From contig JALWXN010000004.1 of NCBI GenBank assembly GCA_027078545.1, positions 1 through 64,000 on the forward strand: 64,000 nucleotides of DNA, written 5' to 3'. The translations under genes were made by a program, and so were the position numbers. The notes under the pieces are model-generated. The model made no database searches. It worked only from the letters and a program-made list of their open reading frames with translations, and was not told the origin of the DNA. Source of the stretch: Nitrososphaeria archaeon. Its GTDB lineage: Archaea; Thermoproteota; Nitrososphaeria; Geothermarchaeales; JDFR-13. This document shows positions 38,759 through 49,608 of the stretch, piece by piece; position 1 is the first letter of the stretch, and each line of letters opens with the position of its first letter.

Positions 38759-40174
38759 CTATACAAATGAAGGCCTCCTAGAGAGATACCTAGACACGTA
38801 GAGTGGGAGCCGTGGGAACCCCTCCAACTCCCCAGACACCTTCTCAGCCAACTCCTCAACACCCATCTCCACCGTCTCACCAGTAGCCCTCACCCTAACC
38901 CTGAGCCTCCCACTCCTAGCCTCCTCATCACCAACCACACAGATATATGGTATCCACGCCGACTCGGCATCCTTAACCCTCCGACCCACACTAGCATCCC
39001 TATCATCAATATCAACCCTTATACCCCTAGACTCCAATACCGACATAAACTCCTCACACACACCTAGATGATCCGAGGGAGACACGGGAATCAGCCTGAC
39101 CTGGGTGGGAGATAGCCACGTAGGCAACCTAGGCTTCTCCCCCCTCCTCTCCATCTTGGCAGCCTCCTCTAGAAACTCGAAGAGGAACCTCTCGACACTA
39201 CCATGGATAGCCGTATGAAGAATCACTGGATGCTTCTTACTACCATCCTCATCCACATACTCGATACCGAACCTCTCACCATTCCCAATATCTATCTGTA
39301 CAGTCGCCGTCTCAACAGGCCTACCCACAGAGTCTATATAGTGGAACTCAACGTTGAGCACCCAGTAATACTTACCCGCCTCAACAGTCTTTAGAAGCAC
39401 CGGCTTACCATCTATCTCCAGGAGACTCCTAAGGAAATCCATATTATCCCTTAGGAAGTCAACCGATATGTTATAGAGGCTATAATATTCAAAGCCGAAC
39501 TTCCTACCCTCAGAGAATATCAGTTCATAGAGCCTCCTAAACTCCTCCTTAGCCATCTCCAGATCCCTAGTCAAGACATGCATATCCGGCATGAAGAAAC
39601 GCCTAGTCCTGGTAAGCCCCTTCAACTCACCCCTCTGCTCATACCTATAGCTATCCGCCAGCTCGAAGACCCTCAGTGGTAGGTCCCTATACGTTATGAA
39701 CTTCCTCCGGAGCAGTGCAAACTGGCCGAAACAGGCTGCATACCTCAATACAAACTCTCTCTTACCAGGCTTGACCTTATACATCCTCTGGCCAAACAGC
39801 TCCGCATGCTTCTTGATCGCCGGGATATCGAGGTCATACATGATAGACGTGATTACAGGGTTAGCCCCGATCCGTAGAACGGTGGAGGTGGAATACTCCC
39901 TGAGAATATTAAGCATCAAGGCACCGTTAGGGAGATAGGTGAGGTGACCAGCATCGCTAAAAGGCTCAGGCTCAGCTATCCTGAGCTTAGAGAGATACTT
40001 TATATGTGGACTCTCACGCCCCCCAATAGGCTCAGAGAAGACCTCCTTCCTCACCAGGTTCATGAAGTTCTCATCATCAGAGGAGTACTCATCCGGATAG
40101 TATAACTCCCCATCCATGTCGAGGATATAGAACTCCCCCTCCATAACCTCCTCCATATCTACAGGCTCAGCCAA
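38759..40174 (-). CDS. thrS: Threonyl-tRNA synthetase (catalytic plus anticodon-binding domains; no N-terminal editing domain)
   Basis: LRYAACFGQF, YRYEQRGEL, FFMPDMH, ILHTAIHGSVER, LPTWLSPTQV. Start at TTG 40174 or ATG 40156. Confidence 0.93.
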   Translation of the reverse strand: MAEPVDMEEVMEGEFYILDMDGELYYPDEYSSDDENFMNLVRKEVFSEPIGGRESPHIKYLSKLRIAEPEPFSDAGHLTYLPNGALMLNILREYSTSTVLRIGANPVITSIMYDLDIPAIKKHAELFGQRMYKVKPGKREFVLRYAACFGQFALLRRKFITYRDLPLRVFELADSYRYEQRGELKGLTRTRRFFMPDMHVLTRDLEMAKEEFRRLYELIFSEGRKFGFEYYSLYNISVDFLRDNMDFLRSLLEIDGKPVLLKTVEAGKYYWVLNVEFHYIDSVGRPVETATVQIDIGNGERFGIEYVDEDGSKKHPVILHTAIHGSVERFLFEFLEEAAKMERRGEKPRLPTWLSPTQVRLIPVSPSDHLGVCEEFMSVLESRGIRVDIDDRDASVGRRVKDAESAWIPYICVVGDEEARSGRLRVRVRATGETVEMGVEELAEKVSGELEGFPRLPLYVSRYLSRRPSFV

Positions 40175-40175
40175 C

Positions 40176-40370
40176 TCATCCCCACCTCCACTTCTCAAGC
40201 ATCCTATCCTTCTTAGTCGCCTTCTTATACTCCTTCCAATGATCCTTACAGAGCTTAACCCTACGCCCAGGGAGGAGCCTAGACCCGAAGACCTTTGAGG
40301 CCTTCTCCCTAGAGATGGTCTTATAGGCCTCCGCCCCACACCCCTCGACACTACACGACTCTCGGGCCAT
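40176..40370 (-). CDS. Small basic putative Zn-binding protein
   Basis: CSVEGC...LCKDHW; ends 1 nt before the thrS TTG start. Confidence 0.7.
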   Translation of the reverse strand: MARESCSVEGCGAEAYKTISREKASKVFGSRLLPGRRVKLCKDHWKEYKKATKKDRMLEKWRWG

Positions 40371-40432
40371 GAGAATATAATATGGATACACAGAATCATT
40401 AATCTTCGGTCTAGTCTAGACGGCTGATAAAG

Positions 40433-41023
40433 ATGCTGAATAAGCTACGCCCCCACGTATCTGGGAAACTAGAGAGGCTGGGGCTGATCCTAGCCAAACA
40501 TGGCGTTAAGCCTCTACACGTAAGCCTCGCAGGGTTCCTACTAGCCCTCCTCTCCATAGCACCCCTCATCCTCCTAGAGAGAGCAGTGGGGACATCACTA
40601 TTCATCACAATGATCATATTATCCGGTGCAGCCGATGCCCTCGACGGATCTATAGCCAGAGCATCCGGAACAGTCACGAGGAAGGGGAGCCTACTAGACT
40701 CGGTGCTAGACAGGCTAACCGACACCCTCATCCTCCTCTACATATATCTAGGCGGGGTGACGGGTAACGCAGCCCTCGTAATACTGCTCGTGGCCACAAG
40801 CCTGATCATCTCCTATATACGGTCAAAGGCCGAGTCACTAGGGGTCGAGATGTCTGGAGTGGGGCTGATGGAGAGGGGCGAAAGGATAATAATAGTCCTC
40901 ATAGCAGTTGCTACACATCTATTCAGCCCCATATACACCGAGTACATCCTCACACTACTCCTAATCCTAAACCTAGTGACGATCATTCAGAGGCTACACC
41001 ATGCTTGGAAGAGCCTCAGCTAA
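40433..41023 (+). CDS. CDP-alcohol phosphatidyltransferase (archaetidylinositol-phosphate synthase-like)
   Basis: DALDGSIAR...GSLLDSVLDR; SYIRSKAE; GLMERGER. Confidence 0.92.
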   Translation: MLNKLRPHVSGKLERLGLILAKHGVKPLHVSLAGFLLALLSIAPLILLERAVGTSLFITMIILSGAADALDGSIARASGTVTRKGSLLDSVLDRLTDTLILLYIYLGGVTGNAALVILLVATSLIISYIRSKAESLGVEMSGVGLMERGERIIIVLIAVATHLFSPIYTEYILTLLLILNLVTIIQRLHHAWKSLS

Positions 41024-42410
41024 ACATACGCCTCGTCCTACCCATAGCCTCAAACCCTACATCCCTCACCCTCACAACAAGGGGGAAGTCCGACACGACA
41101 CGGCCAAGTACTAGACAGGACCCCCTACCCAAGTCCTTAACCACTAGCTTCACCGAGTCCGCATCCACGTTAGACACCTTCGAGAGCGTCTCAAGATCCT
41201 TATCGTTGAGGAAGCGGAACACAAAGATGTTGTCCAGCTGCCTAAAGATGGTCTGGTCCAGAGAGTCCGGCTGATTAGTGATGAATACCGGGAAGAGGCC
41301 GAAATGCCTCATCCTAGTGACGATATCCTCCCAGTAGGTCTCCCTAATATAGAGATGAGCCTCCTCAGCGAAGAGGAATAATGGGGGGAGCCTCCTCGCC
41401 TCCAACAGCCTAGAAATCTTGCTCAGGAATATCTCCACAAGTATCCTCCTCTCCACCCCCGATAGATCCCTAAGATTCACTATGTAGCCCCTAGAACCCT
41501 TGAAGAGGTCTTCGAGCCTGAAACTCCCACTAGGATCTATGAACCTACAGTTCTCTAGGATGTTAAGCCTGGATAGTATAGCATCCTTCACCATCAAGTT
41601 CTTAACACTGGCATCTAGATACCTAGCCACTATACCCGAGTTGAACCTACCCTCCCTCCTCATTATAGAGTCCCAGAGCTCGGCCAGGATATTTGAAGAT
41701 ACGTGTGGCAGGTCTAGAATCTTCGTCATCACATTCACAACAGTATCCTTACCCAGATACTCGATGGAGAATACAATATCCTCACCAGGCTCCAAAACCC
41801 TGAAGCCCTCGCTCTCCAAGCCTAGATACTCCCTGTTAAGGTCGAAGATCAACACATTACCACCTAGACCGACCAGGCTATAGGCAAGCAGCTTAGCTAG
41901 ATGAGACTTCCCACTCCCCTTCATCCCAGTTATCAACGTCAGCGACCCGTCAAGCTCATAGGCATCGATAACCACGGGGTTATCCAAGAGGTCAGAACCT
42001 ATAGGGACGGGATACTTAACATCCTTCCCAATTATCTCGAAGAGCCTGTCTGCCGATAACCTAACGATCTTTGAATAAGCCCTTGATGGAAGATCATCCA
42101 CAAAATTGACCGCCCTACCCCCCTTAAAGGCCGACCTAATCTTACACTTCAGGATCTTAAGATCATTAATCAGTATAGATACACGGTCATACTCAACACT
42201 GCCATCATAGGTACTGAGCCTAATCAACCCCTCCCTAATCACCTCCTCGATCAGCCCAGGGACATCCACATATTCAAAGTCCACGACCTGCACAATCAGT
42301 CCTACAGACTTCTCCTCATCCATCACCAGGAGATACTCACCCTTATAGACAGACTCCCCAGGAAAAGCGACTATCTCCAGCGTATCACCCTCCTTCCTAT
42401 ACACCTTCAT
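41016..42410 (-). CDS. HerA-like ATPase (DUF87 / FtsK-HerA superfamily)
   Basis: N-terminal HAS-barrel-like region; GMKGSGKS; IFDLNREY; LFAEEAH; RMRHFG; ITNQP. Confidence 0.88.
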   Translation of the reverse strand: MKVYRKEGDTLEIVAFPGESVYKGEYLLVMDEEKSVGLIVQVVDFEYVDVPGLIEEVIREGLIRLSTYDGSVEYDRVSILINDLKILKCKIRSAFKGGRAVNFVDDLPSRAYSKIVRLSADRLFEIIGKDVKYPVPIGSDLLDNPVVIDAYELDGSLTLITGMKGSGKSHLAKLLAYSLVGLGGNVLIFDLNREYLGLESEGFRVLEPGEDIVFSIEYLGKDTVVNVMTKILDLPHVSSNILAELWDSIMRREGRFNSGIVARYLDASVKNLMVKDAILSRLNILENCRFIDPSGSFRLEDLFKGSRGYIVNLRDLSGVERRILVEIFLSKISRLLEARRLPPLFLFAEEAHLYIRETYWEDIVTRMRHFGLFPVFITNQPDSLDQTIFRQLDNIFVFRFLNDKDLETLSKVSNVDADSVKLVVKDLGRGSCLVLGRVVSDFPLVVRVRDVGFEAMGRTRRMFS

Positions 42411-43404
42411 CCCTACCGCCCTCCACAGAACCCAATACATGAGGCCTATAGGGGATCGACATCCTAAGCCTCACACCCTTAGAGGCCAGCTGGAATACGA
42501 GGCCAACAATATCCTTAGCACCGAGCTTCGACAGGGTATGGGCCTCGACCAAGACACTGGGATACCCAGTGGGGTTTGAGGGAAGGGAATATACGATATC
42601 TAGGACCTCCTCATCAGACCCTATTGAAACATCCATCCTAAATGGATAGCCACTCGAGACTTTGAGGAACCCCAGATACGTATAGAACCCCTTCACACCA
42701 CCCTTTACACGGGAGACCCCATCAATACCCATCGACCGGAAATAGTTAAGGATAGAGACATACCTCTTAACCAGCCTACTCCTCTTCGATATCCCTACTA
42801 TGTGGACACCCCTCCTAGAAGCCTCCTCAACCACATATCTATAGATATCCGGCCTAACAACACCATGGCCAAGCAGACCATCAAGAAGCACAACTCCACC
42901 CTTTATCCCGCTGACAAGCCTAGCCACTACCGAGTATTCATATACACTTAGGAGGATACGCCTAGCTATACCCAGATCACCGAGGACCGCCGCCTTTGCA
43001 GAGCCATCAAAAATGGTTAATCCAGCCAACTCCTTCAACAACTCTGGATAGAGATACACAGCATGCGGCCCATCCAACCTAACCCTAGTAGACCCATTCA
43101 ACATGTCATACTCAACTACAGCAGACCTTATCCCCATAACGACACCCTCAACACCCTCAGCCAAAGGGACTATTGACGCGTCGACCGCGTATACAACACC
43201 ATCCCAATCAACCTTCTGAAGCACATGGAGAGACTCTGGAACCTCGACATCAGCCCTAGCTATCAACGGTGAGTAGGAGTACTGAGCCCTGGGGAGCCTC
43301 GGTATAAAGACTTTACCCCCAGCCCTCGATAGAGATGTGGATAGAGTCATCTGGATCCTATCCACCACCGTATCTAGCTCAGGCCTCGTCTTTTGAAACT
43401 TCAT
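42397..43404 (-). CDS. NurA-family nuclease
   Basis: YAVDAS, LLDG, GISKRS, GYPSVLVEAH; overlaps the herA-like start. Confidence 0.82.
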   Translation of the reverse strand: MKFQKTRPELDTVVDRIQMTLSTSLSRAGGKVFIPRLPRAQYSYSPLIARADVEVPESLHVLQKVDWDGVVYAVDASIVPLAEGVEGVVMGIRSAVVEYDMLNGSTRVRLDGPHAVYLYPELLKELAGLTIFDGSAKAAVLGDLGIARRILLSVYEYSVVARLVSGIKGGVVLLDGLLGHGVVRPDIYRYVVEEASRRGVHIVGISKRSRLVKRYVSILNYFRSMGIDGVSRVKGGVKGFYTYLGFLKVSSGYPFRMDVSIGSDEEVLDIVYSLPSNPTGYPSVLVEAHTLSKLGAKDIVGLVFQLASKGVRLRMSIPYRPHVLGSVEGGRDEGV

Positions 43405-43433
43405 AAAGCTTCATGAATACTATTGAATAAACA

Positions 43434-43447
43434 AGTATTTAAATATT
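43434..43447. promoter_or_regulatory. Palindromic bidirectional TATA element between nurA and a wHTH gene
   Basis: TATTTAAATA (43436-43445) is its own reverse complement and sits about 30 nt from both starts (43404 and 43473). Confidence 0.6.
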
Positions 43448-43472
43448 TCACATGAGGAAATCATTAGGTGGG

Positions 43473-43856
43473 ATGGATGACGAGGTCAAGGTGAAGGTTA
43501 GGATAGGAGATATCGAGGTGGAGATAACAGGCACCCCCGATAAGATTGGGGAGGTCGTCCCCAACATCATAGAGAGTATCAGGTCGGGAGCCACCCCAAA
43601 GGAGCAGAGGAAACCAGTTGGGAGGAGCTGCAAAGACGTCATCTACGAGCTATGGAGAGAGGGGTGGTTCAAGGAGGAGAGGAGGCTTGGAGACGTATAT
43701 GAAGAGCTGACTAGGAGGGGGTACTACTTCGACAAGAGTGCCATATCCCACGCCCTCTCCTCACTAGTGAAGGAGGGTATACTCACCCGCATGGGGAGAG
43801 AGAGGAGATATACCTATGTCCAGAAGATACCCTACACAGCCAAGATCCGCGGCTAG
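43473..43856 (+). CDS. Winged-helix protein A (N-terminal beta-beta-alpha module plus wHTH)
   Basis: KVRIGDIEVEITG; RRLGDVYEEL...FDKSAISHALSSLVKEGILTR. Confidence 0.8.
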   Translation: MDDEVKVKVRIGDIEVEITGTPDKIGEVVPNIIESIRSGATPKEQRKPVGRSCKDVIYELWREGWFKEERRLGDVYEELTRRGYYFDKSAISHALSSLVKEGILTRMGRERRYTYVQKIPYTAKIRG

Positions 43857-44332
43857 AGCTTCTCAAGAAGATAGAGCAGCCCCCTCAACGAGATCTTATA
43901 CCTGACCGGCTTACCACCCACCTTCTCAACAAGCCCCATGGATCTAAGCTCACTAAGCCTTGAAGAGACAGACTTAGGTGTAGAGACGACAATACTCGAT
44001 AATTGGTCAAGCGTCATAGACTCCTCCCTCCTAAGGCCGGATACATGTAGAACCCTGGAGAGCCCCAAGGCACTCAGGATCTTTAGCTGCATAGATAGTC
44101 CATCGGCCTCCTCGAGTAGGACGATCTCACCATCCATCGTAGCCTTCGCAACCCTACTAAGCTTCTCCGATAGGGCCTTATAGTCAGGCTCTATGAAGAG
44201 GGACGAGGCAAGCCTCATCCCAGGGACTACCTTGTCTAGCCATAGCATAACCTGCTCCTTGACCTCCAGCGGATCCCCCTCGAAATCAGCCTCCAAATCG
44301 CCATATTTCAGGTGGACCTTGAGATCGGTCAT
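43853..44332 (-). CDS. Winged-helix protein B
   Basis: HLKYGDLEADFEG; MTLDQL...PKSVSSRLSELRSMGLVEK. Confidence 0.8.
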   Translation of the reverse strand: MTDLKVHLKYGDLEADFEGDPLEVKEQVMLWLDKVVPGMRLASSLFIEPDYKALSEKLSRVAKATMDGEIVLLEEADGLSMQLKILSALGLSRVLHVSGLRREESMTLDQLSSIVVSTPKSVSSRLSELRSMGLVEKVGGKPVRYKISLRGLLYLLEKL

Positions 44333-44348
44333 TCCGCCTAGTCACCAG

Positions 44349-44780
44349 TCATGGCCCTGCGGAGACATATCTATATATCTTGTCATCACCCTTAATACGT
44401 CTCAACTCCCCCCTCTCCACAAGCCGCTTGAGAGTTACAGCGACAGTGCTCTTATTGAAATACTGGCCCATAGATGCCAGGGCATCGATCACCTCCTTCA
44501 ACGTCCGGGGCTTCCTACCCCACTCACTATCAAACATCTTCCTCAGTATCGAGGGGAGATTGTCACCCCTCTCTATCTTGATGCTGGGCAGGTCGATCTC
44601 CAGCTCCTCCTCTCCTTGTACCTCATCACTAGGCTCCAAAACCTCGGCTTCAAATTGGGATAGTGAGACCACCTTCTCCAGGAAGTAGTCCACGTCCTCC
44701 CTACTCCCCCTAACCTCTATCTTCAATACCGTCCCACCACTCCTCCTCAGGACTACCTTTAGATACACCTCGTCACTCAT
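44349..44780 (-). CDS. Winged-helix protein C
   Basis: LKIEVRGSREDV; PRTLKEVIDAL...FNKSTVAVTLKRLVERGELRR. Confidence 0.8.
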   Translation of the reverse strand: MSDEVYLKVVLRRSGGTVLKIEVRGSREDVDYFLEKVVSLSQFEAEVLEPSDEVQGEEELEIDLPSIKIERGDNLPSILRKMFDSEWGRKPRTLKEVIDALASMGQYFNKSTVAVTLKRLVERGELRRIKGDDKIYRYVSAGP

Positions 44781-46651
44781 ACTATCTCCTCCACCAGCCT
44801 TAGAACGGTCTTCGGATCCACCTTTCCACGATACTTAGACATTGCTATACCCATCAGCCTCTTAACAAGTATTTCACGTGGAAGCTCCCTCAGATCACTA
44901 CGGGTCTCCAAAACCCCCATCAGGAATGACCGGAGCTCCTCCGTATCCATAGACATTTTATGCCTCTCAATAGCATCATCTACATCCATACCCTTGGCAA
45001 CCTCCCTATACACCTCCTCCACAGCCTCCTTAGCCAATACACCCCTATCAACAGCCTGTGCAACCCTCAGCATCACTTCTGGGGTGACACGCTCCATATC
45101 GACACCCTCCCGTGACAGGGAGCGGGGGATCGACCTTATCAGGTGTATAACATATCTAGGCTTCAGATTCTTGGAGCTACTAAGTATGGATTCGAAGAGG
45201 TCTAGCAGATCCGAGTCATATAGATCCTCGGCCTCCTCCCTCGAGATACCATACCTCTCCACCAACTCATTAATAACCTCCTCCGGATCCCTGACAACTA
45301 TCCTCTCACGTATATCCTTAATCCTCGAGGGCCCGACAGGGATTGGTGGGACATCAGTCTCCGGATACATCCTAGCCATCCCCGGCCTAGGCCTCATGTA
45401 ATAAGTGGACCCATCGGGACCCGCTGCCCTAGTCTCCGGGGGGACGCCATCCAGGGCCTCGGCACAACGCTCCCTAATCTTCTCAAAGGTCAGCTCCCTA
45501 AGGCTCGGATCCTCAAGCCCCACTATTATGAAGCCATCCATCTCATCCATACCCAGCCTTCTACGTACAGCCTCCACCTCCTCACTAGATATGCCGTATC
45601 CCGGCAGCTCATCACTATGGAATAACCCCTTGAGACCAGTCCAGAAACGCAGCCTATCCAGTATCTCCCTAGCGAACGTCCTACCCCCAATATCCATGCC
45701 CAGGATACCCGCAAACTTGGGTAGTCTTATCCCGAATACCTCTCCACCCCTATCCAAAACCCTCCGGACAATCTTACTCGATGTGGACCTGAATATATCT
45801 GTCAGGAGAACCTCCTCCTGTGAAGCTATCTCCTCCTTGGATACACCCCTATCGGCTAGGATACGGGCTATCTCTATCAGCTTCCTCTGCCTATTATATT
45901 CATATCTAATCACAGCCTCCAGCTGATCAAGCTGCTGCACACCCTTTATCTCGACCACTGCTCCACCATCAACAGATATGTTTACATCCTGCCTGACACT
46001 CCCGATCCCCCCTCTCTTATACCCAGTAGACCTAACCAGCCTCCCAAGGTATCTAGCCACCCTGACAGCCTCATCAGGCGAGGATATGTCTGGGGCTGTA
46101 GAGATCTCTATCAAGGGTATGCCCAGCCTATCCAAGGAGTAGTGAGCCGTACTACCCTCCCTACCCAAGAGTCGAGACGCCTCCTCCTCAATGGCTAGGG
46201 ACTGGACACCATACCTCTTATCACCTATGTAGAAATAGCCATTGATACCCACCATACCAGTCCTCTGAAAACCAGTTGTGTTGGACCCGTCTACAACTAT
46301 CTTCCTCATAAATATCAGTTCATCCACCACATCCATCCCGAGATAATCAGCTATCGCCACTGCTACATCGATAGCCAACTCGTCAGGAAGATGCGGGGGC
46401 TCCTCATCCATCTCCACTAGGCAGCTAGACTCTACTGGGGAGGAATACCTAATCGTCAGGCCCTTCTCAAACTCGAAGAGCGCTGCTGGATCGACCTGGC
46501 CCAGCTCACTCTGGGTAGGCCTAAGCCTCCTAATAAAGTCTATATCCCTACCCACCACCGGGTTTGATGGGCATTTACAGAACAGCTTCCTACCAGTATC
46601 CAGCTGTATATGAACCTCCAGCCCAACCTTCAGACCCTTATATCCAGTCAT
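44777..46651 (-). CDS. gatE: Glu-tRNA(Gln) amidotransferase subunit E
   Basis: GLEVHIQL, RKIVVDGSNTTGFQRT, DRLGIPLIEI, RMYPETD. Confidence 0.96.
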   Translation of the reverse strand: MTGYKGLKVGLEVHIQLDTGRKLFCKCPSNPVVGRDIDFIRRLRPTQSELGQVDPAALFEFEKGLTIRYSSPVESSCLVEMDEEPPHLPDELAIDVAVAIADYLGMDVVDELIFMRKIVVDGSNTTGFQRTGMVGINGYFYIGDKRYGVQSLAIEEEASRLLGREGSTAHYSLDRLGIPLIEISTAPDISSPDEAVRVARYLGRLVRSTGYKRGGIGSVRQDVNISVDGGAVVEIKGVQQLDQLEAVIRYEYNRQRKLIEIARILADRGVSKEEIASQEEVLLTDIFRSTSSKIVRRVLDRGGEVFGIRLPKFAGILGMDIGGRTFAREILDRLRFWTGLKGLFHSDELPGYGISSEEVEAVRRRLGMDEMDGFIIVGLEDPSLRELTFEKIRERCAEALDGVPPETRAAGPDGSTYYMRPRPGMARMYPETDVPPIPVGPSRIKDIRERIVVRDPEEVINELVERYGISREEAEDLYDSDLLDLFESILSSSKNLKPRYVIHLIRSIPRSLSREGVDMERVTPEVMLRVAQAVDRGVLAKEAVEEVYREVAKGMDVDDAIERHKMSMDTEELRSFLMGVLETRSDLRELPREILVKRLMGIAMSKYRGKVDPKTVLRLVEEIV

Positions 46652-47978
46652 CTACACACCTCCTCCTCGCCGGGAAACTCCTCGGGAGTATATCGTGGGA
46701 TATAGGCGTTGGCATGAGAGTATCGAGATAGTCCTTGCCAAAGCTCCCCAGGATCCAGGTAGCCTTTACATAGGCGGTCTCTGAGAGCATATCCTCAAGG
46801 GGCACCACGCCTATACGTAGGAGATCCCTACCGGTGTCATACACCCTGAGGTTCGTCCTACCCCATATACACTGCGAAGCCATAAAGACCCGGACCTCCT
46901 CTATAAACTCCTCCAAAACCTCTATAACACCCTGGGACACGTGGCCAAGGCCGGATCCCTCAATCACCAATGCATCAATACCAGAGGCCATGACCAGCCT
47001 GACCACACTCGGATCCATGCCGGGGAAGAATTTGAGTAGGAAGACGCCCCTCTCTGCGAAGCCAGGCCTATACTCCACACTACCCCCACCCCTCTTGACA
47101 AATCTCAGCTCATCCCTAAGCCAGGTATATCTGATCTCCTTGAGATTCTTAACGAGGGCTAGGGGAGGGGCGCCAATAGTCTCGAAGGCATATCTGGCAC
47201 TGGTATGGTTCTTCCTAACCCTTGTACCCAGATGGATAGCCACCAAGTCATCAGATGTCGTGTGATGCATAGCTACGAAGACCCCACCAACATCCATATT
47301 CCCAGCAGCGTATAGGGCCGAGAGGAGATTAACAGCAGCATCGGAGCTAGGCCTATCACTAGACCTCTGGGACCCCACCAGTATAACGGGGATATCTATG
47401 CCCCTAAGTGCATAGCTCAAGGCTGCCGACGTATAGCCGAGTGTGTCAGTACCATGGAGAACAACGACTCCATCCACACCATCCCTATAGGCCCCATAGA
47501 CAGCATCCGCTATCTTAGCCCAGTCACCAGGTGTGAGATGCTCACTATACTTATTCATCAGGACTACAGTCTCAATATCCGCTATATCGAGAACCTCAGG
47601 AATGATGTCGAAGAGATCCTCGGGCGTAACAGCTGACCTAACACCTCCCGTTCTATAATCCACCCTACTCAGTATGGTACCACCCACCGCGATGATCCTA
47701 ACCCGGGGCAGGGAGGAGGGTCTCTCCACCCTTCTCCTGACACTCTCAACACCACTCCATGGAGGCTCCAAACGCCTCACATCGACTATACGATCCATCC
47801 TCATCCCAATGTTATACCCATTATCCAGCTTCAGGATCAGGATATCCTCCCCTGAGAAGATGGTCTTAGGCATCAAAACGCCCCTAAGCCTCTTACCACC
47901 ATCATACACAATCTCTACATAGTCCCCCACCCTAACTCCGAAGCGTTCCAAGAAGACCTCGTAGATAGACCTCGTCAT
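46638..47978 (-). CDS. gatD: Glu-tRNA(Gln) amidotransferase subunit D
   Basis: KLDNGYNIG; GGTILSRVDYRTG; HGTDT; SQRSSDRPSSD. Confidence 0.96.
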   Translation of the reverse strand: MTRSIYEVFLERFGVRVGDYVEIVYDGGKRLRGVLMPKTIFSGEDILILKLDNGYNIGMRMDRIVDVRRLEPPWSGVESVRRRVERPSSLPRVRIIAVGGTILSRVDYRTGGVRSAVTPEDLFDIIPEVLDIADIETVVLMNKYSEHLTPGDWAKIADAVYGAYRDGVDGVVVLHGTDTLGYTSAALSYALRGIDIPVILVGSQRSSDRPSSDAAVNLLSALYAAGNMDVGGVFVAMHHTTSDDLVAIHLGTRVRKNHTSARYAFETIGAPPLALVKNLKEIRYTWLRDELRFVKRGGGSVEYRPGFAERGVFLLKFFPGMDPSVVRLVMASGIDALVIEGSGLGHVSQGVIEVLEEFIEEVRVFMASQCIWGRTNLRVYDTGRDLLRIGVVPLEDMLSETAYVKATWILGSFGKDYLDTLMPTPISHDILPRSFPARRRCVDDWI

Positions 47979-47982
47979 CCCA

Positions 47983-49608
47983 TCACCCCAGATACTTACT
48001 CACGTATGGACCATCCCTCCTATATCCATGCCTATAGTAGTACTCCCTCACACCCACACCACTGATAACCAGGATCTTCTCCCCACCAAGTGTAGAGGCA
48101 TAATCCTCCGCCACACTAAGCAGTCTCGACCCCACACCACTATGCTGCCAACTACTCTCACCACTCGGCGATCCCAGGGGGAGGCTCCTGCCATATACAT
48201 GTAGCTCCCTAACGATGAAGCTCTCACTAGAAACAATCTCCTCACGCCACGCCCTATGGGACGGCCTCCTAAGCCTGATAAAGCCTATGATAATATCCTT
48301 CTCAACATCCTCCATACTGATGAAGAACTCTAGACCATGGCTAGCCGAATACCTCCTCACCCTTATCACATATCGATCGGGATTAACACCCTCCTTAACA
48401 TACCTATGCCCAGCCTCCCTACACCTGATACATCTACACCTAGCCTCACGGAGAGATAGCTCCTCATAGACCAGCTGCCTAAGGTTGGGATACCTAACCC
48501 CAGCCACAACCTCCGTCGACGGTATATCCCTATTGACCCTCATCACCCTGGTCCACGGCGGGATATAGTTCATCTTAACAGTCGCGATGAGGTCCCTAGC
48601 CTCCTCCGTCTCCAGGGGCTTGTAACGACCCTCCCTCCACAGCTTAATAAGCCCTGTATGCTCGAGGACCAGGGTGGGATATATCTTTAGATGGTCAGGT
48701 AGGTAGAGATCACTAGTGAATACCCGTTCGAAGACCTGGATATCATCTGCAAAACTTGTCAACGGAAGGCCAGGCATCAGGTGATACGTAACCTTCAGAC
48801 CAGCATCCTTAAGTAGCTGAGTAGCATCCACAACATCCCACTGCGTATGTCCCCTATTCACAAATCTATGGACATTATCATATATCGATTGGACACCAAG
48901 CTCAACACGGGTAGCACCGTGCTCCAACATCCAGTCAATATCCTCCTCCTTAGCGGCGTCGGGCTTAGTCTCGAAGGCCAGGCCTACAATCCTATACCTA
49001 GAACGCTCCGCAGCCACTAGAGCCTCATCCATTGACCTAGGATAGTAGCCAATGAAGAACTGGAATAGCCTCTTCATATAGGCCTCACGATACCACTCGG
49101 GAGACTTGTTAAAAGTCCCTCCCTGGATAACTATATCGATCTTATCGGTTGAATGGCCCATACTCTCCAGCTGCCTAACCCTACTCTCAACCTGTCTATA
49201 GGGATCAAACTGGAAGTTTATACCCCTCATAGCACTTGGCTCCTTACCAGTATAGGATATAGGCGCATCGGGGTAGTGCGGACAATAGATGCACCTACCA
49301 TGGGGGCACTCAAATGGAGCCGTCATAATAGCCACGATAACTATCCCAGAAATACTCCTGACAGGCTTCTTCAAGAGGAGAGACCTGACACTCTCCGAGG
49401 AGATATAGGGGATCAGATCCGCATTACTAGGTGTGTAGCCGAGGCCAAACTTCTTAGCTGCCTCCAGCTTAACCCTCTGCACCACATCCCTAGAGACGGA
49501 TCCATATATCCTAATATGGTCGGAGAGCCTCCTCTCAACATACCTGGCTACCATCTCGACAACAGAGGCTCCAGTCGACACAGCCACACCTCCCCATTTA
49601 GATAACAC
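47983..49608 (-). CDS. elp3: Elp3-family radical SAM / acetyltransferase (tRNA U34 carboxymethylation)
   Basis: CPHGRCIYC; VELGVQS; LKIYPT; VRELHVYG; GVREYY. Confidence 0.95.
   Translation of the reverse strand: MLSKWGGVAVSTGASVVEMVARYVERRLSDHIRIYGSVSRDVVQRVKLEAAKKFGLGYTPSNADLIPYISSESVRSLLLKKPVRSISGIVIVAIMTAPFECPHGRCIYCPHYPDAPISYTGKEPSAMRGINFQFDPYRQVESRVRQLESMGHSTDKIDIVIQGGTFNKSPEWYREAYMKRLFQFFIGYYPRSMDEALVAAERSRYRIVGLAFETKPDAAKEEDIDWMLEHGATRVELGVQSIYDNVHRFVNRGHTQWDVVDATQLLKDAGLKVTYHLMPGLPLTSFADDIQVFERVFTSDLYLPDHLKIYPTLVLEHTGLIKLWREGRYKPLETEEARDLIATVKMNYIPPWTRVMRVNRDIPSTEVVAGVRYPNLRQLVYEELSLREARCRCIRCREAGHRYVKEGVNPDRYVIRVRRYSASHGLEFFISMEDVEKDIIIGFIRLRRPSHRAWREEIVSSESFIVRELHVYGRSLPLGSPSGESSWQHSGVGSRLLSVAEDYASTLGGEKILVISGVGVREYYYRHGYRRDGPYVSKYLG

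Follow-up and report, generated by a model that had tools for sequence, protein, structure and literature searches.

The DNA considered here is a 64,000-nucleotide (nt) stretch, hereafter the window, from the start of contig JALWXN010000004.1 of a Nitrososphaeria archaeon of the order Geothermarchaeales (assembly GCA_027078545.1). Between positions 41016 and 44780, it carries a gene for a HerA-like ATPase (herA2), an overlapping gene for a NurA-like nuclease (nurA2), and three genes, wA, wB and wC, for winged helix-turn-helix (wHTH) proteins that are paralogous over their full length (Table 1). In archaea, HerA-NurA corresponds to the machinery for long-range resection of DNA ends, and little is understood of how it is regulated. 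The open reading frames (ORFs) and Pfam matches bear out the overlapping nurA-like and herA-like genes reported in an initial annotation made from the sequence alone. The nuclease motifs listed there (DAS, LLDG, GISK, and GYP..L..AH) are all present in nurA2, and the Walker A and B motifs and arginines of herA2 are present and conserved among homologs. The likely start of herA2 is M11 at 42410, which is kept among aligned homologs; the overlap with nurA2 spans 14-44 nt, according to the choice of herA2 start, and persists with M11. For wA, the profile match and the position of the TATA element favor ATG 43473, the longest ORF beginning at 43452; with the favored start, the 68-nt nurA2-wA spacer given in the initial annotation is correct. 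The same annotation had described a trio of related wHTH genes following one another directly. All three are indeed related over their full length, but wB and wC lie on the minus strand and converge on wA.

Conserved residues of HerA2 and NurA2

HerA2 matches the Pfam DUF87/HerA profile (PF01935) with 49.7 bits (cut-off 23.2, E = 6.5e-13), and its closest solved structure is HerA of Sulfolobus solfataricus (4D2I, 3.2e-11). The Walker A and Walker B motifs read GMKGSGKS and LFLFAEEAH, respectively, and G172-K178-S179, E359-E360, R376/R378, and R400 are conserved across 55 homologous sequences. The protein scores below the cut-offs of the NCBIfam HerA equivalog models NF040937 and NF040819 (44.7 vs 800 and 33.4 vs 970, respectively). 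The Mre11-linked HerA1 of the same genome likewise fails these cut-offs, so this set of models is narrow.

NurA2 passes the cut-off of the Pfam NurA profile (PF09376; cut-off 21) with 27.8 bits (E = 2.1e-6), and with 25.6 bits in the whole-genome scan. A family profile representing 36 homologs matches S. solfataricus NurA (2YGK) at 1.8e-4. The residues D75, D175, K207, Y281, and H289 do not vary among these homologs, and E156 is conserved in at least 90% of them; for this reason NurA2 is probably an active nuclease. These residues were equated with the published catalytic D, E, D, and H of the Sulfolobus and Pyrococcus enzymes by motif order, not by structural superposition.

Distribution and linkage of the module

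The block gatD-gatE-wC-wB-(wA)-nurA2-herA2 recurs in 20 loci of relatives, among which one genome carries the five module genes without gatDE. Scanning species-representative genomes with a pattern derived from the wA alignment yielded 230 loci, 80 of which were retrieved. Enough upstream DNA was available for 60 loci, in 52 of which nurA2 is adjacent to and divergent from wA. Of the 52 loci with more flank, 49 contain HerA2; wB and wC were found in 48 and 37 of the 60 wA loci, respectively. Several of the misses in these counts are ORF-calling artefacts. The wA-nurA2-herA2 linkage spans Geothermarchaeales, Nitrososphaerales, Caldarchaeales (Candidatus Caldarchaeum subterraneum), and Bathyarchaeia, and strong wA matches occur in 84 of 301 genomes sampled across the phylum. 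Most of 18 further loci, from 15 families, have wA divergent from NurA2-HerA2; in two, the HerA-like pair is more distant. One to three additional wHTH paralogs accompany each. Exact-sequence look-ups assign these families to Ca. Caldarchaeum subterraneum (HerA2, BAJ51369; wA, BAJ51371), Calditenuaceae, hot-spring metagenome-assembled genomes (MAGs) of Nitrososphaerota, and Bathyarchaeia, and the public names of the module families are only “hypothetical,” “DUF87,” or “ATP-binding protein.” The association of wHTH genes with this HerA-NurA clade, originally seen in a single genome, is therefore found across many families.

Tallied by family across the class, the presence of wA and NurA2 is identical (the NurA2 tally includes two unpublished genomes, G131 and G230, on which nothing else rests apart from the exception noted next). 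Nitrosopumilaceae give only weak matches to the wA and NurA2 profiles, save two genomes (G131 and G175) with a strong NurA2-like match. In most Nitrososphaeria loci, wC and wB follow gatD and gatE in the same direction. The divergent adjacency of wA and nurA2 outlasts breaks in the synteny with gatDE and the glycyl-tRNA synthetase (GlyRS) gene (L047, L084, L107, and L175-L192). A protein of about 230 amino acids (aa) with an N-terminal HTH_3 domain (XRE-type) is encoded directly 3′ of herA2 in 26 Nitrososphaeria loci (for example, L067:4652-5353, L106:4607-5296, and L122:3830-4513); it stays beside the wHTH trio where herA2 has been lost and is absent from the source window.

Coexistence with the canonical operon

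The genome (1.24 Mb, 11 contigs) also contains a canonical nurA (405 aa)-ORF (206 aa)-herA (624 aa)-mre11-rad50 operon at C4:1,082,023-1,089,317, about 1.04 Mb from nurA2-herA2 on the same contig, which vindicates the suggestion that the window holds a second HerA-NurA pair. The only mre11 and rad50 copies of the genome lie in this operon (C4:1.082-1.086 Mb), together with HerA1 and NurA1. As the initial annotation had stated, neither gene occurs in the window (tblastn, E ≤ 0.01). Within the same family, 12 of 13 genomes have HerA1 alongside the wHTH-linked module, and the two also occur together in other families. Among 62 HerA-like proteins placed in a quick maximum-likelihood tree, the 29 wHTH-linked HerAs all form a single clade (Shimodaira-Hasegawa-like approximate likelihood ratio test, 99; stem length 2.3) that includes none of the 24 Mre11-linked sequences. 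The order within this clade tracks taxonomy (Geothermarchaeales, Bathyarchaeia, Nitrososphaerales).

The two pairs are not always distinguished by their neighbors. In the Bathyarchaeia family f46 (two genomes of one genus), wA is followed divergently by nurA2-herA2, a 148-aa ORF, and mre11-rad50; this rad50 encodes the sole zinc-hook Rad50 of the genome, and a different NurA-HerA pair stands alone elsewhere. Thus, the two pairs cannot be told apart cleanly by mre11-rad50 adjacency, and it is plausible that HerA2-NurA2 has a role in repair or recombination. The designation of the module as independent of Mre11-Rad50 is accordingly weakened.

Some further observations concern other HerA- and NurA-related loci. 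The 206-aa ORF between the canonical nurA and herA (L007:9496-10116; C4, about 1,087,495-1,088,115) has no Pfam or NCBIfam match, and ORFs of 207-219 aa stand in its position in most of the family's genomes. Two more DUF87/HerA-like ATPases of the source genome (498 and 541 aa; C4:347819-348451 and C1:65554-66081) fall on long branches that belong to neither the Mre11-linked nor the wHTH-linked clade. A second NurA2-like copy exists elsewhere in some genomes of the same family (G007:C6:495198-496046, G010:C22:12822-13640, and G006:C4:1302-2066; E values of 1e-51 to 1e-61 against the NurA2 profile), the source genome having just one. In Ca. Caldarchaeum subterraneum (G273), three further NurA-HerA-like gene pairs are present (C1:818988-820755, 915394-917108, and 927067-928718), so the pair has multiplied there.

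A conserved palindrome in the shared promoter

At the position in the nurA2-wA promoter where the window has the variant TTCATGAA/ATTGAA, relatives carry the palindrome TTG-N2-CAA. This motif has 65 matches in 52 promoters, compared with 1.6 (maximum 7) in shuffled sequences; the remaining spacers of these loci have 0.04 matches per 130 nt. In the source genome, the composite operator motif occurs once in 1.24 Mb, at this promoter, where its elements accompany the TATA-like TATTTAAATA and, within the near-palindrome TTCATAAAGCTTCATGAA, reach the nurA2 start codon. Archaeal repressors usually have their operators next to the TATA box and across start sites. The wHTH proteins are the candidate binders, and the enriched, conserved palindrome in the shared promoter makes the regulatory role proposed for them in the initial annotation plausible.

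In several Nitrosopumilales-like MAG loci, the corresponding promoter contains two TTG-N2-CAA sites at a distance of 38 nt. Behind this promoter, nurA2-herA2 is replaced by a conserved ORF of about 89 aa (MLGKM..., ...LNELGKTYFE...). We considered that this ORF might be a NurA2 remnant and rejected the idea, there being no significant similarity.

Three winged-helix paralogs with a common N-terminal module

Full-length homology of wA, wB, and wC is supported by hhalign probabilities of 99.3%, 92.5%, and 94.1%, the first for wC against wA (E = 9e-21) and the second for wB against wA. The AlphaFold model of wA (predicted local distance difference test score, pLDDT, 79) consists of an N-terminal beta-hairpin and helix, a linker, and a C-terminal winged helix, whereas that of wB (pLDDT 93) combines the same N-terminal module with a MarR-like winged helix and has an additional helical region in the middle. 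Residues 73-159 of wB match MarR/ArsR-type winged helices at Z of about 10; the winged helix of wA gives generic fold matches only (Foldseek E values of 0.01 or weaker). The wC protein passes the cut-off of Pfam Penicillinase_R, a BlaI-type winged helix (27.5 bits, cut-off 22.6), whereas wA and wB stay below every cut-off in Pfam and NCBIfam. Sub-threshold Penicillinase_R matches are found in 24 of 32 wA members, and many wA members have sub-threshold matches to both BlaI-type and replication-terminator-protein (RTP) winged helices. PDB profile searches with all three proteins returned generic winged-helix matches only, and the N-terminal module had no structural match when searched within whole-protein models. 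A joint fold of wA, wB, and wC scored 0.00, which speaks neither for nor against binding. The wA family comprises at least 2812 protein clusters, all named “hypothetical,” with no precomputed Pfam domain among the 120 clusters listed, and a Rosetta-stone search found no wA fused to longer proteins (weak evidence).

The top Foldseek match of the wA winged helix is that of Hop2 (2MH2, E = 0.01), and wA has a weak profile match to the TBPIP protein 4Y66 (E = 0.45). An identity with Hop2/TBPIP was nevertheless rejected: none of 32 members matches TBPIP or Mnd1 in Pfam, and the domain order is reversed. Like the small winged-helix repressors BlaI/MecI, MarR, and ArsR/SmtB, the three proteins have C-terminal domains that are predicted to fold as a winged helix, and a palindromic operator is found at their own promoter. 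Unlike in those repressors, the winged helix is C-terminal, behind a beta-hairpin/helix module without a match, and two to four paralogs are tied to a nuclease-motor pair.

Evolutionary character and genomic setting

Median identity to the window proteins is 47% for wA, 43% for wC, and 50% for HerA2, compared with 48% for GatE and 51% for GatD; wB diverges faster (34%). The neighbors are housekeeping genes for PolB, GlyRS, a CDP-alcohol phosphatidyltransferase, GatDE, and ELP3, the GC content of the window is unremarkable, and its composition is flat. The module is single-copy per genome and, in most families sampled, almost no genome lacks it. Among the genes inspected between 35956 and 49608, none of a mobile element was noticed. 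In PADLOC, the best match of HerA2 is mad8 (2.9e-24), its matches to HerA models reaching 1e-13 at most; NurA2 and wA are without a match, and wB and wC give weak generic winged-helix matches only. No full set of defense-system components was matched, and other mad-gene models were unmatched by all five proteins. The housekeeping-like divergence, housekeeping neighbors, flat composition, and PADLOC matches restricted to the HerA type argue for a core chromosomal function rather than a mobile defense island.

The CDP-alcohol phosphatidyltransferase gene (40433-41023, plus strand; Pfam, 1.2e-12) is kept in relatives and has an 8-nt convergent overlap with herA2; a 106-aa minus-strand ORF (40411-40731) is probably its shadow. 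No Rfam RNA family was found within 40000-46000 of the window.

Table 1 Features of the HerA2-NurA2 locus and its surroundings. Positions refer to the window unless another locus is given;., no strand
Feature	Position	Strand	Basis or remark
herA2, HerA/FtsK-family ATPase	41016..42440	-	Longest ORF 474 aa; DUF87 match
nurA2, divergent NurA-family nuclease, 335 aa	42397..43404	-	Pfam NurA; 3′ end overlaps herA2 start
Divergent promoter and candidate operator	43400..43448	.	Sequence, inverted repeats
Near-palindrome TTCATAAAGCTTCATGAA	43400-43417		Overlaps nurA2 start codon
TTCATGAA	43410-43417		Near-repeat 10 nt upstream overlaps nurA2 start codon
ATTGAA	43422-43427		nurA2-wA spacer
Palindromic TATA-like element TATTTAAATA	43436-43445		nurA2-wA spacer
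wA, 127 aa (134 aa from ATG 43452)	43473..43856	+	Divergent from nurA2
wB, 159-aa paralog	43853..44332	-	Converges on wA
wC, 143-aa paralog	44349..44780	-	Start codon overlaps gatE stop (ATGA)
gatE (Glu-tRNA(Gln) amidotransferase)	44777-46651	-	Pfam; context gene
gatD (Glu-tRNA(Gln) amidotransferase)	46638-47978	-	Pfam; context gene
ELP3	47983-49608	-	Context gene
ORF of about 89 aa in Nitrosopumilales-like loci	L096:7685-7954; L122:4549-4818		Same place in L098 and L100

Proposed function and alternatives

On balance, we lean towards reading the locus as a vertically inherited second HerA-NurA module for DNA-end processing that is autoregulated by its wHTH proteins. HerA2 would be a hexameric DNA translocase of the FtsK/HerA type and NurA2 a NurA-type nuclease with retained acidic and histidine catalytic residues, the two together forming a second DNA-end-processing machine paralogous to canonical HerA-NurA. 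The nurA2-herA2 genes are predicted to be transcribed from a compact divergent promoter common with wA, with short palindromes as operators on either side of, or overlapping, the TATA box and the nurA2 start. These operators would most likely be bound by the winged-helix paralogs, that is, wA, possibly with wB and wC, whose shared beta-hairpin/helix module may mediate oligomerization. Expression of nuclease and motor would then be autoregulated, probably being repressed and induced on demand.

Several points weigh against this scheme. The links of the wHTH proteins to the operator and to HerA2-NurA2 are putative, and three paralogs exceed the needs of a simple local repressor. The start of wC overlaps the stop of gatE, so the transcript that carries wB and wC is most likely the one of gatD-gatE rather than that of wA or nurA2-herA2. 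NurA2 evolves fast (27% median identity), which is unusual for a core repair enzyme. Finally, several Nitrosopumilales-like MAG loci keep wA-wC-wB and the operator without nurA2-herA2; the trio thus serves a role for which the nuclease and the motor are dispensable.

The number of paralogs bears on another scenario, in which the wHTH proteins are structural subunits or loaders: a wA-wB-wC hetero-oligomer, assembled through the N-terminal modules, would bind specific DNA sites and load HerA2-NurA2 there or aim it at them, those in the promoter being just one of its targets. The conservation of three or more paralogs together, the preservation of wA and wC at the level of housekeeping enzymes, the module common to all three without a structural match, and the BlaI-type and RTP sub-threshold matches of many wA members fit such a complex. 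Nevertheless, the trio is retained in loci that have lost nurA2-herA2, the operator motif occurs nowhere else in the genome, so that no further set of target sites is visible, and no fused wHTH-NurA or wHTH-HerA proteins were found (weak evidence), and we regard this scenario as unlikely. The loci that retain trio and operator without nurA2-herA2 also accord with a linkage that is regulatory or syntenic only, the trio being an independent autoregulated set of transcription factors or chromatin proteins and HerA2-NurA2 a spare end-resection pair. The coupling of wC/wB to gatE and the position of the module beside mre11-rad50 in f46 agree with such independence, but the wA-nurA2 adjacency survives rearrangements that break the gatDE/GlyRS synteny, and wA and NurA2 agree in presence and absence at the family level, which makes mere coincidence of neighbors improbable in our view.

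A role in defense had also been raised in the initial annotation. In an antiviral system of the HerA-plus-effector type (like Sir2-HerA or DUF4297-HerA), NurA2 would be the effector and the wHTH proteins would be sensors or repressors. HerA ATPases do pair with effectors in known defense systems, the best PADLOC match of HerA2 is a mad8 model, and NurA2 evolves fast. The idea is weakened by the vertical inheritance of a single-copy module that is near-universal in most sampled families and whose tree tracks taxonomy, by its stable synteny among housekeeping genes, by the lack of mobile-element genes among those examined, and by PADLOC results that amount to no system, with neither NurA2 nor wA recognized and no other mad-gene model matched; we consider it very improbable.

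Relation to known systems

The canonical archaeal HerA-NurA, encoded in the herA-mre11-rad50-nurA operon of Sulfolobus, Pyrococcus, and Thermococcus, consists of the same two protein families. The genes here likewise overlap and run in one direction, and the Walker motifs and the catalytic residues of NurA are kept, the nearest solved structures being those of the canonical Sulfolobus proteins. In contrast to that machine, the pair described here belongs to a separate HerA clade, lies far below the equivalog cut-offs, coexists with the canonical operon in place of adjoining mre11-rad50, and comes with a dedicated wHTH family and an operator. The stand-alone HerA-NurA pair of Deinococcus radiodurans is bacterial and the sole one in its genome, and we know of no wHTH partners for it, whereas HerA2-NurA2 is an extra paralog beside a full canonical set. 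As summarized in PMC12977600, the Deinococcus pair works as a minimal resection machine without adjacent Mre11-Rad50. The HerA anti-phage systems (Sir2-HerA, DUF4297-HerA, and MADS mad8) likewise couple a HerA-type ATPase to an effector enzyme, and HerA2 gives weak to moderate matches to the PADLOC HerA and mad8 models. However, the effectors described in the literature are Sir2 or DUF4297, not NurA, and the module is vertically inherited in a housekeeping context. Papers on Nitrososphaera and Nitrosocaldus give only the canonical NurA-HerA-Mre11 set, and we found no description of this module in the literature. Its co-inheritance with three DNA-binding proteins and a conserved control sequence across a large archaeal group points to an unstudied DNA-processing module, not a mobile defense island.

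A more far-reaching proposition, to which we likewise attach a low probability, is that the wHTH proteins form a hetero-oligomeric, site-specific platform that loads or gates HerA2-NurA2 at defined chromosomal sites. If this were true, Nitrososphaeria, Aigarchaeota, and Bathyarchaeia would possess a new regulated DNA-processing pathway distinct from Mre11-Rad50-dependent resection, and the platform would keep a separate function where nuclease and motor have been lost. Independently of that proposition, the findings define a second HerA-NurA clade that is deeply conserved and has DNA-binding partners and an operator of its own. It occurs in Aigarchaeota, Bathyarchaeia, and relatives of ammonia oxidizers, abundant groups most of whose members are uncultured; these lineages would therefore have two separately controlled DNA-processing machines. 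The module offers a concrete and testable regulatory circuit consisting of a short operator and three small proteins, and it delineates a protein family without a name, whose sequence clusters, at least 2800 in number, appear in databases only as hypothetical.

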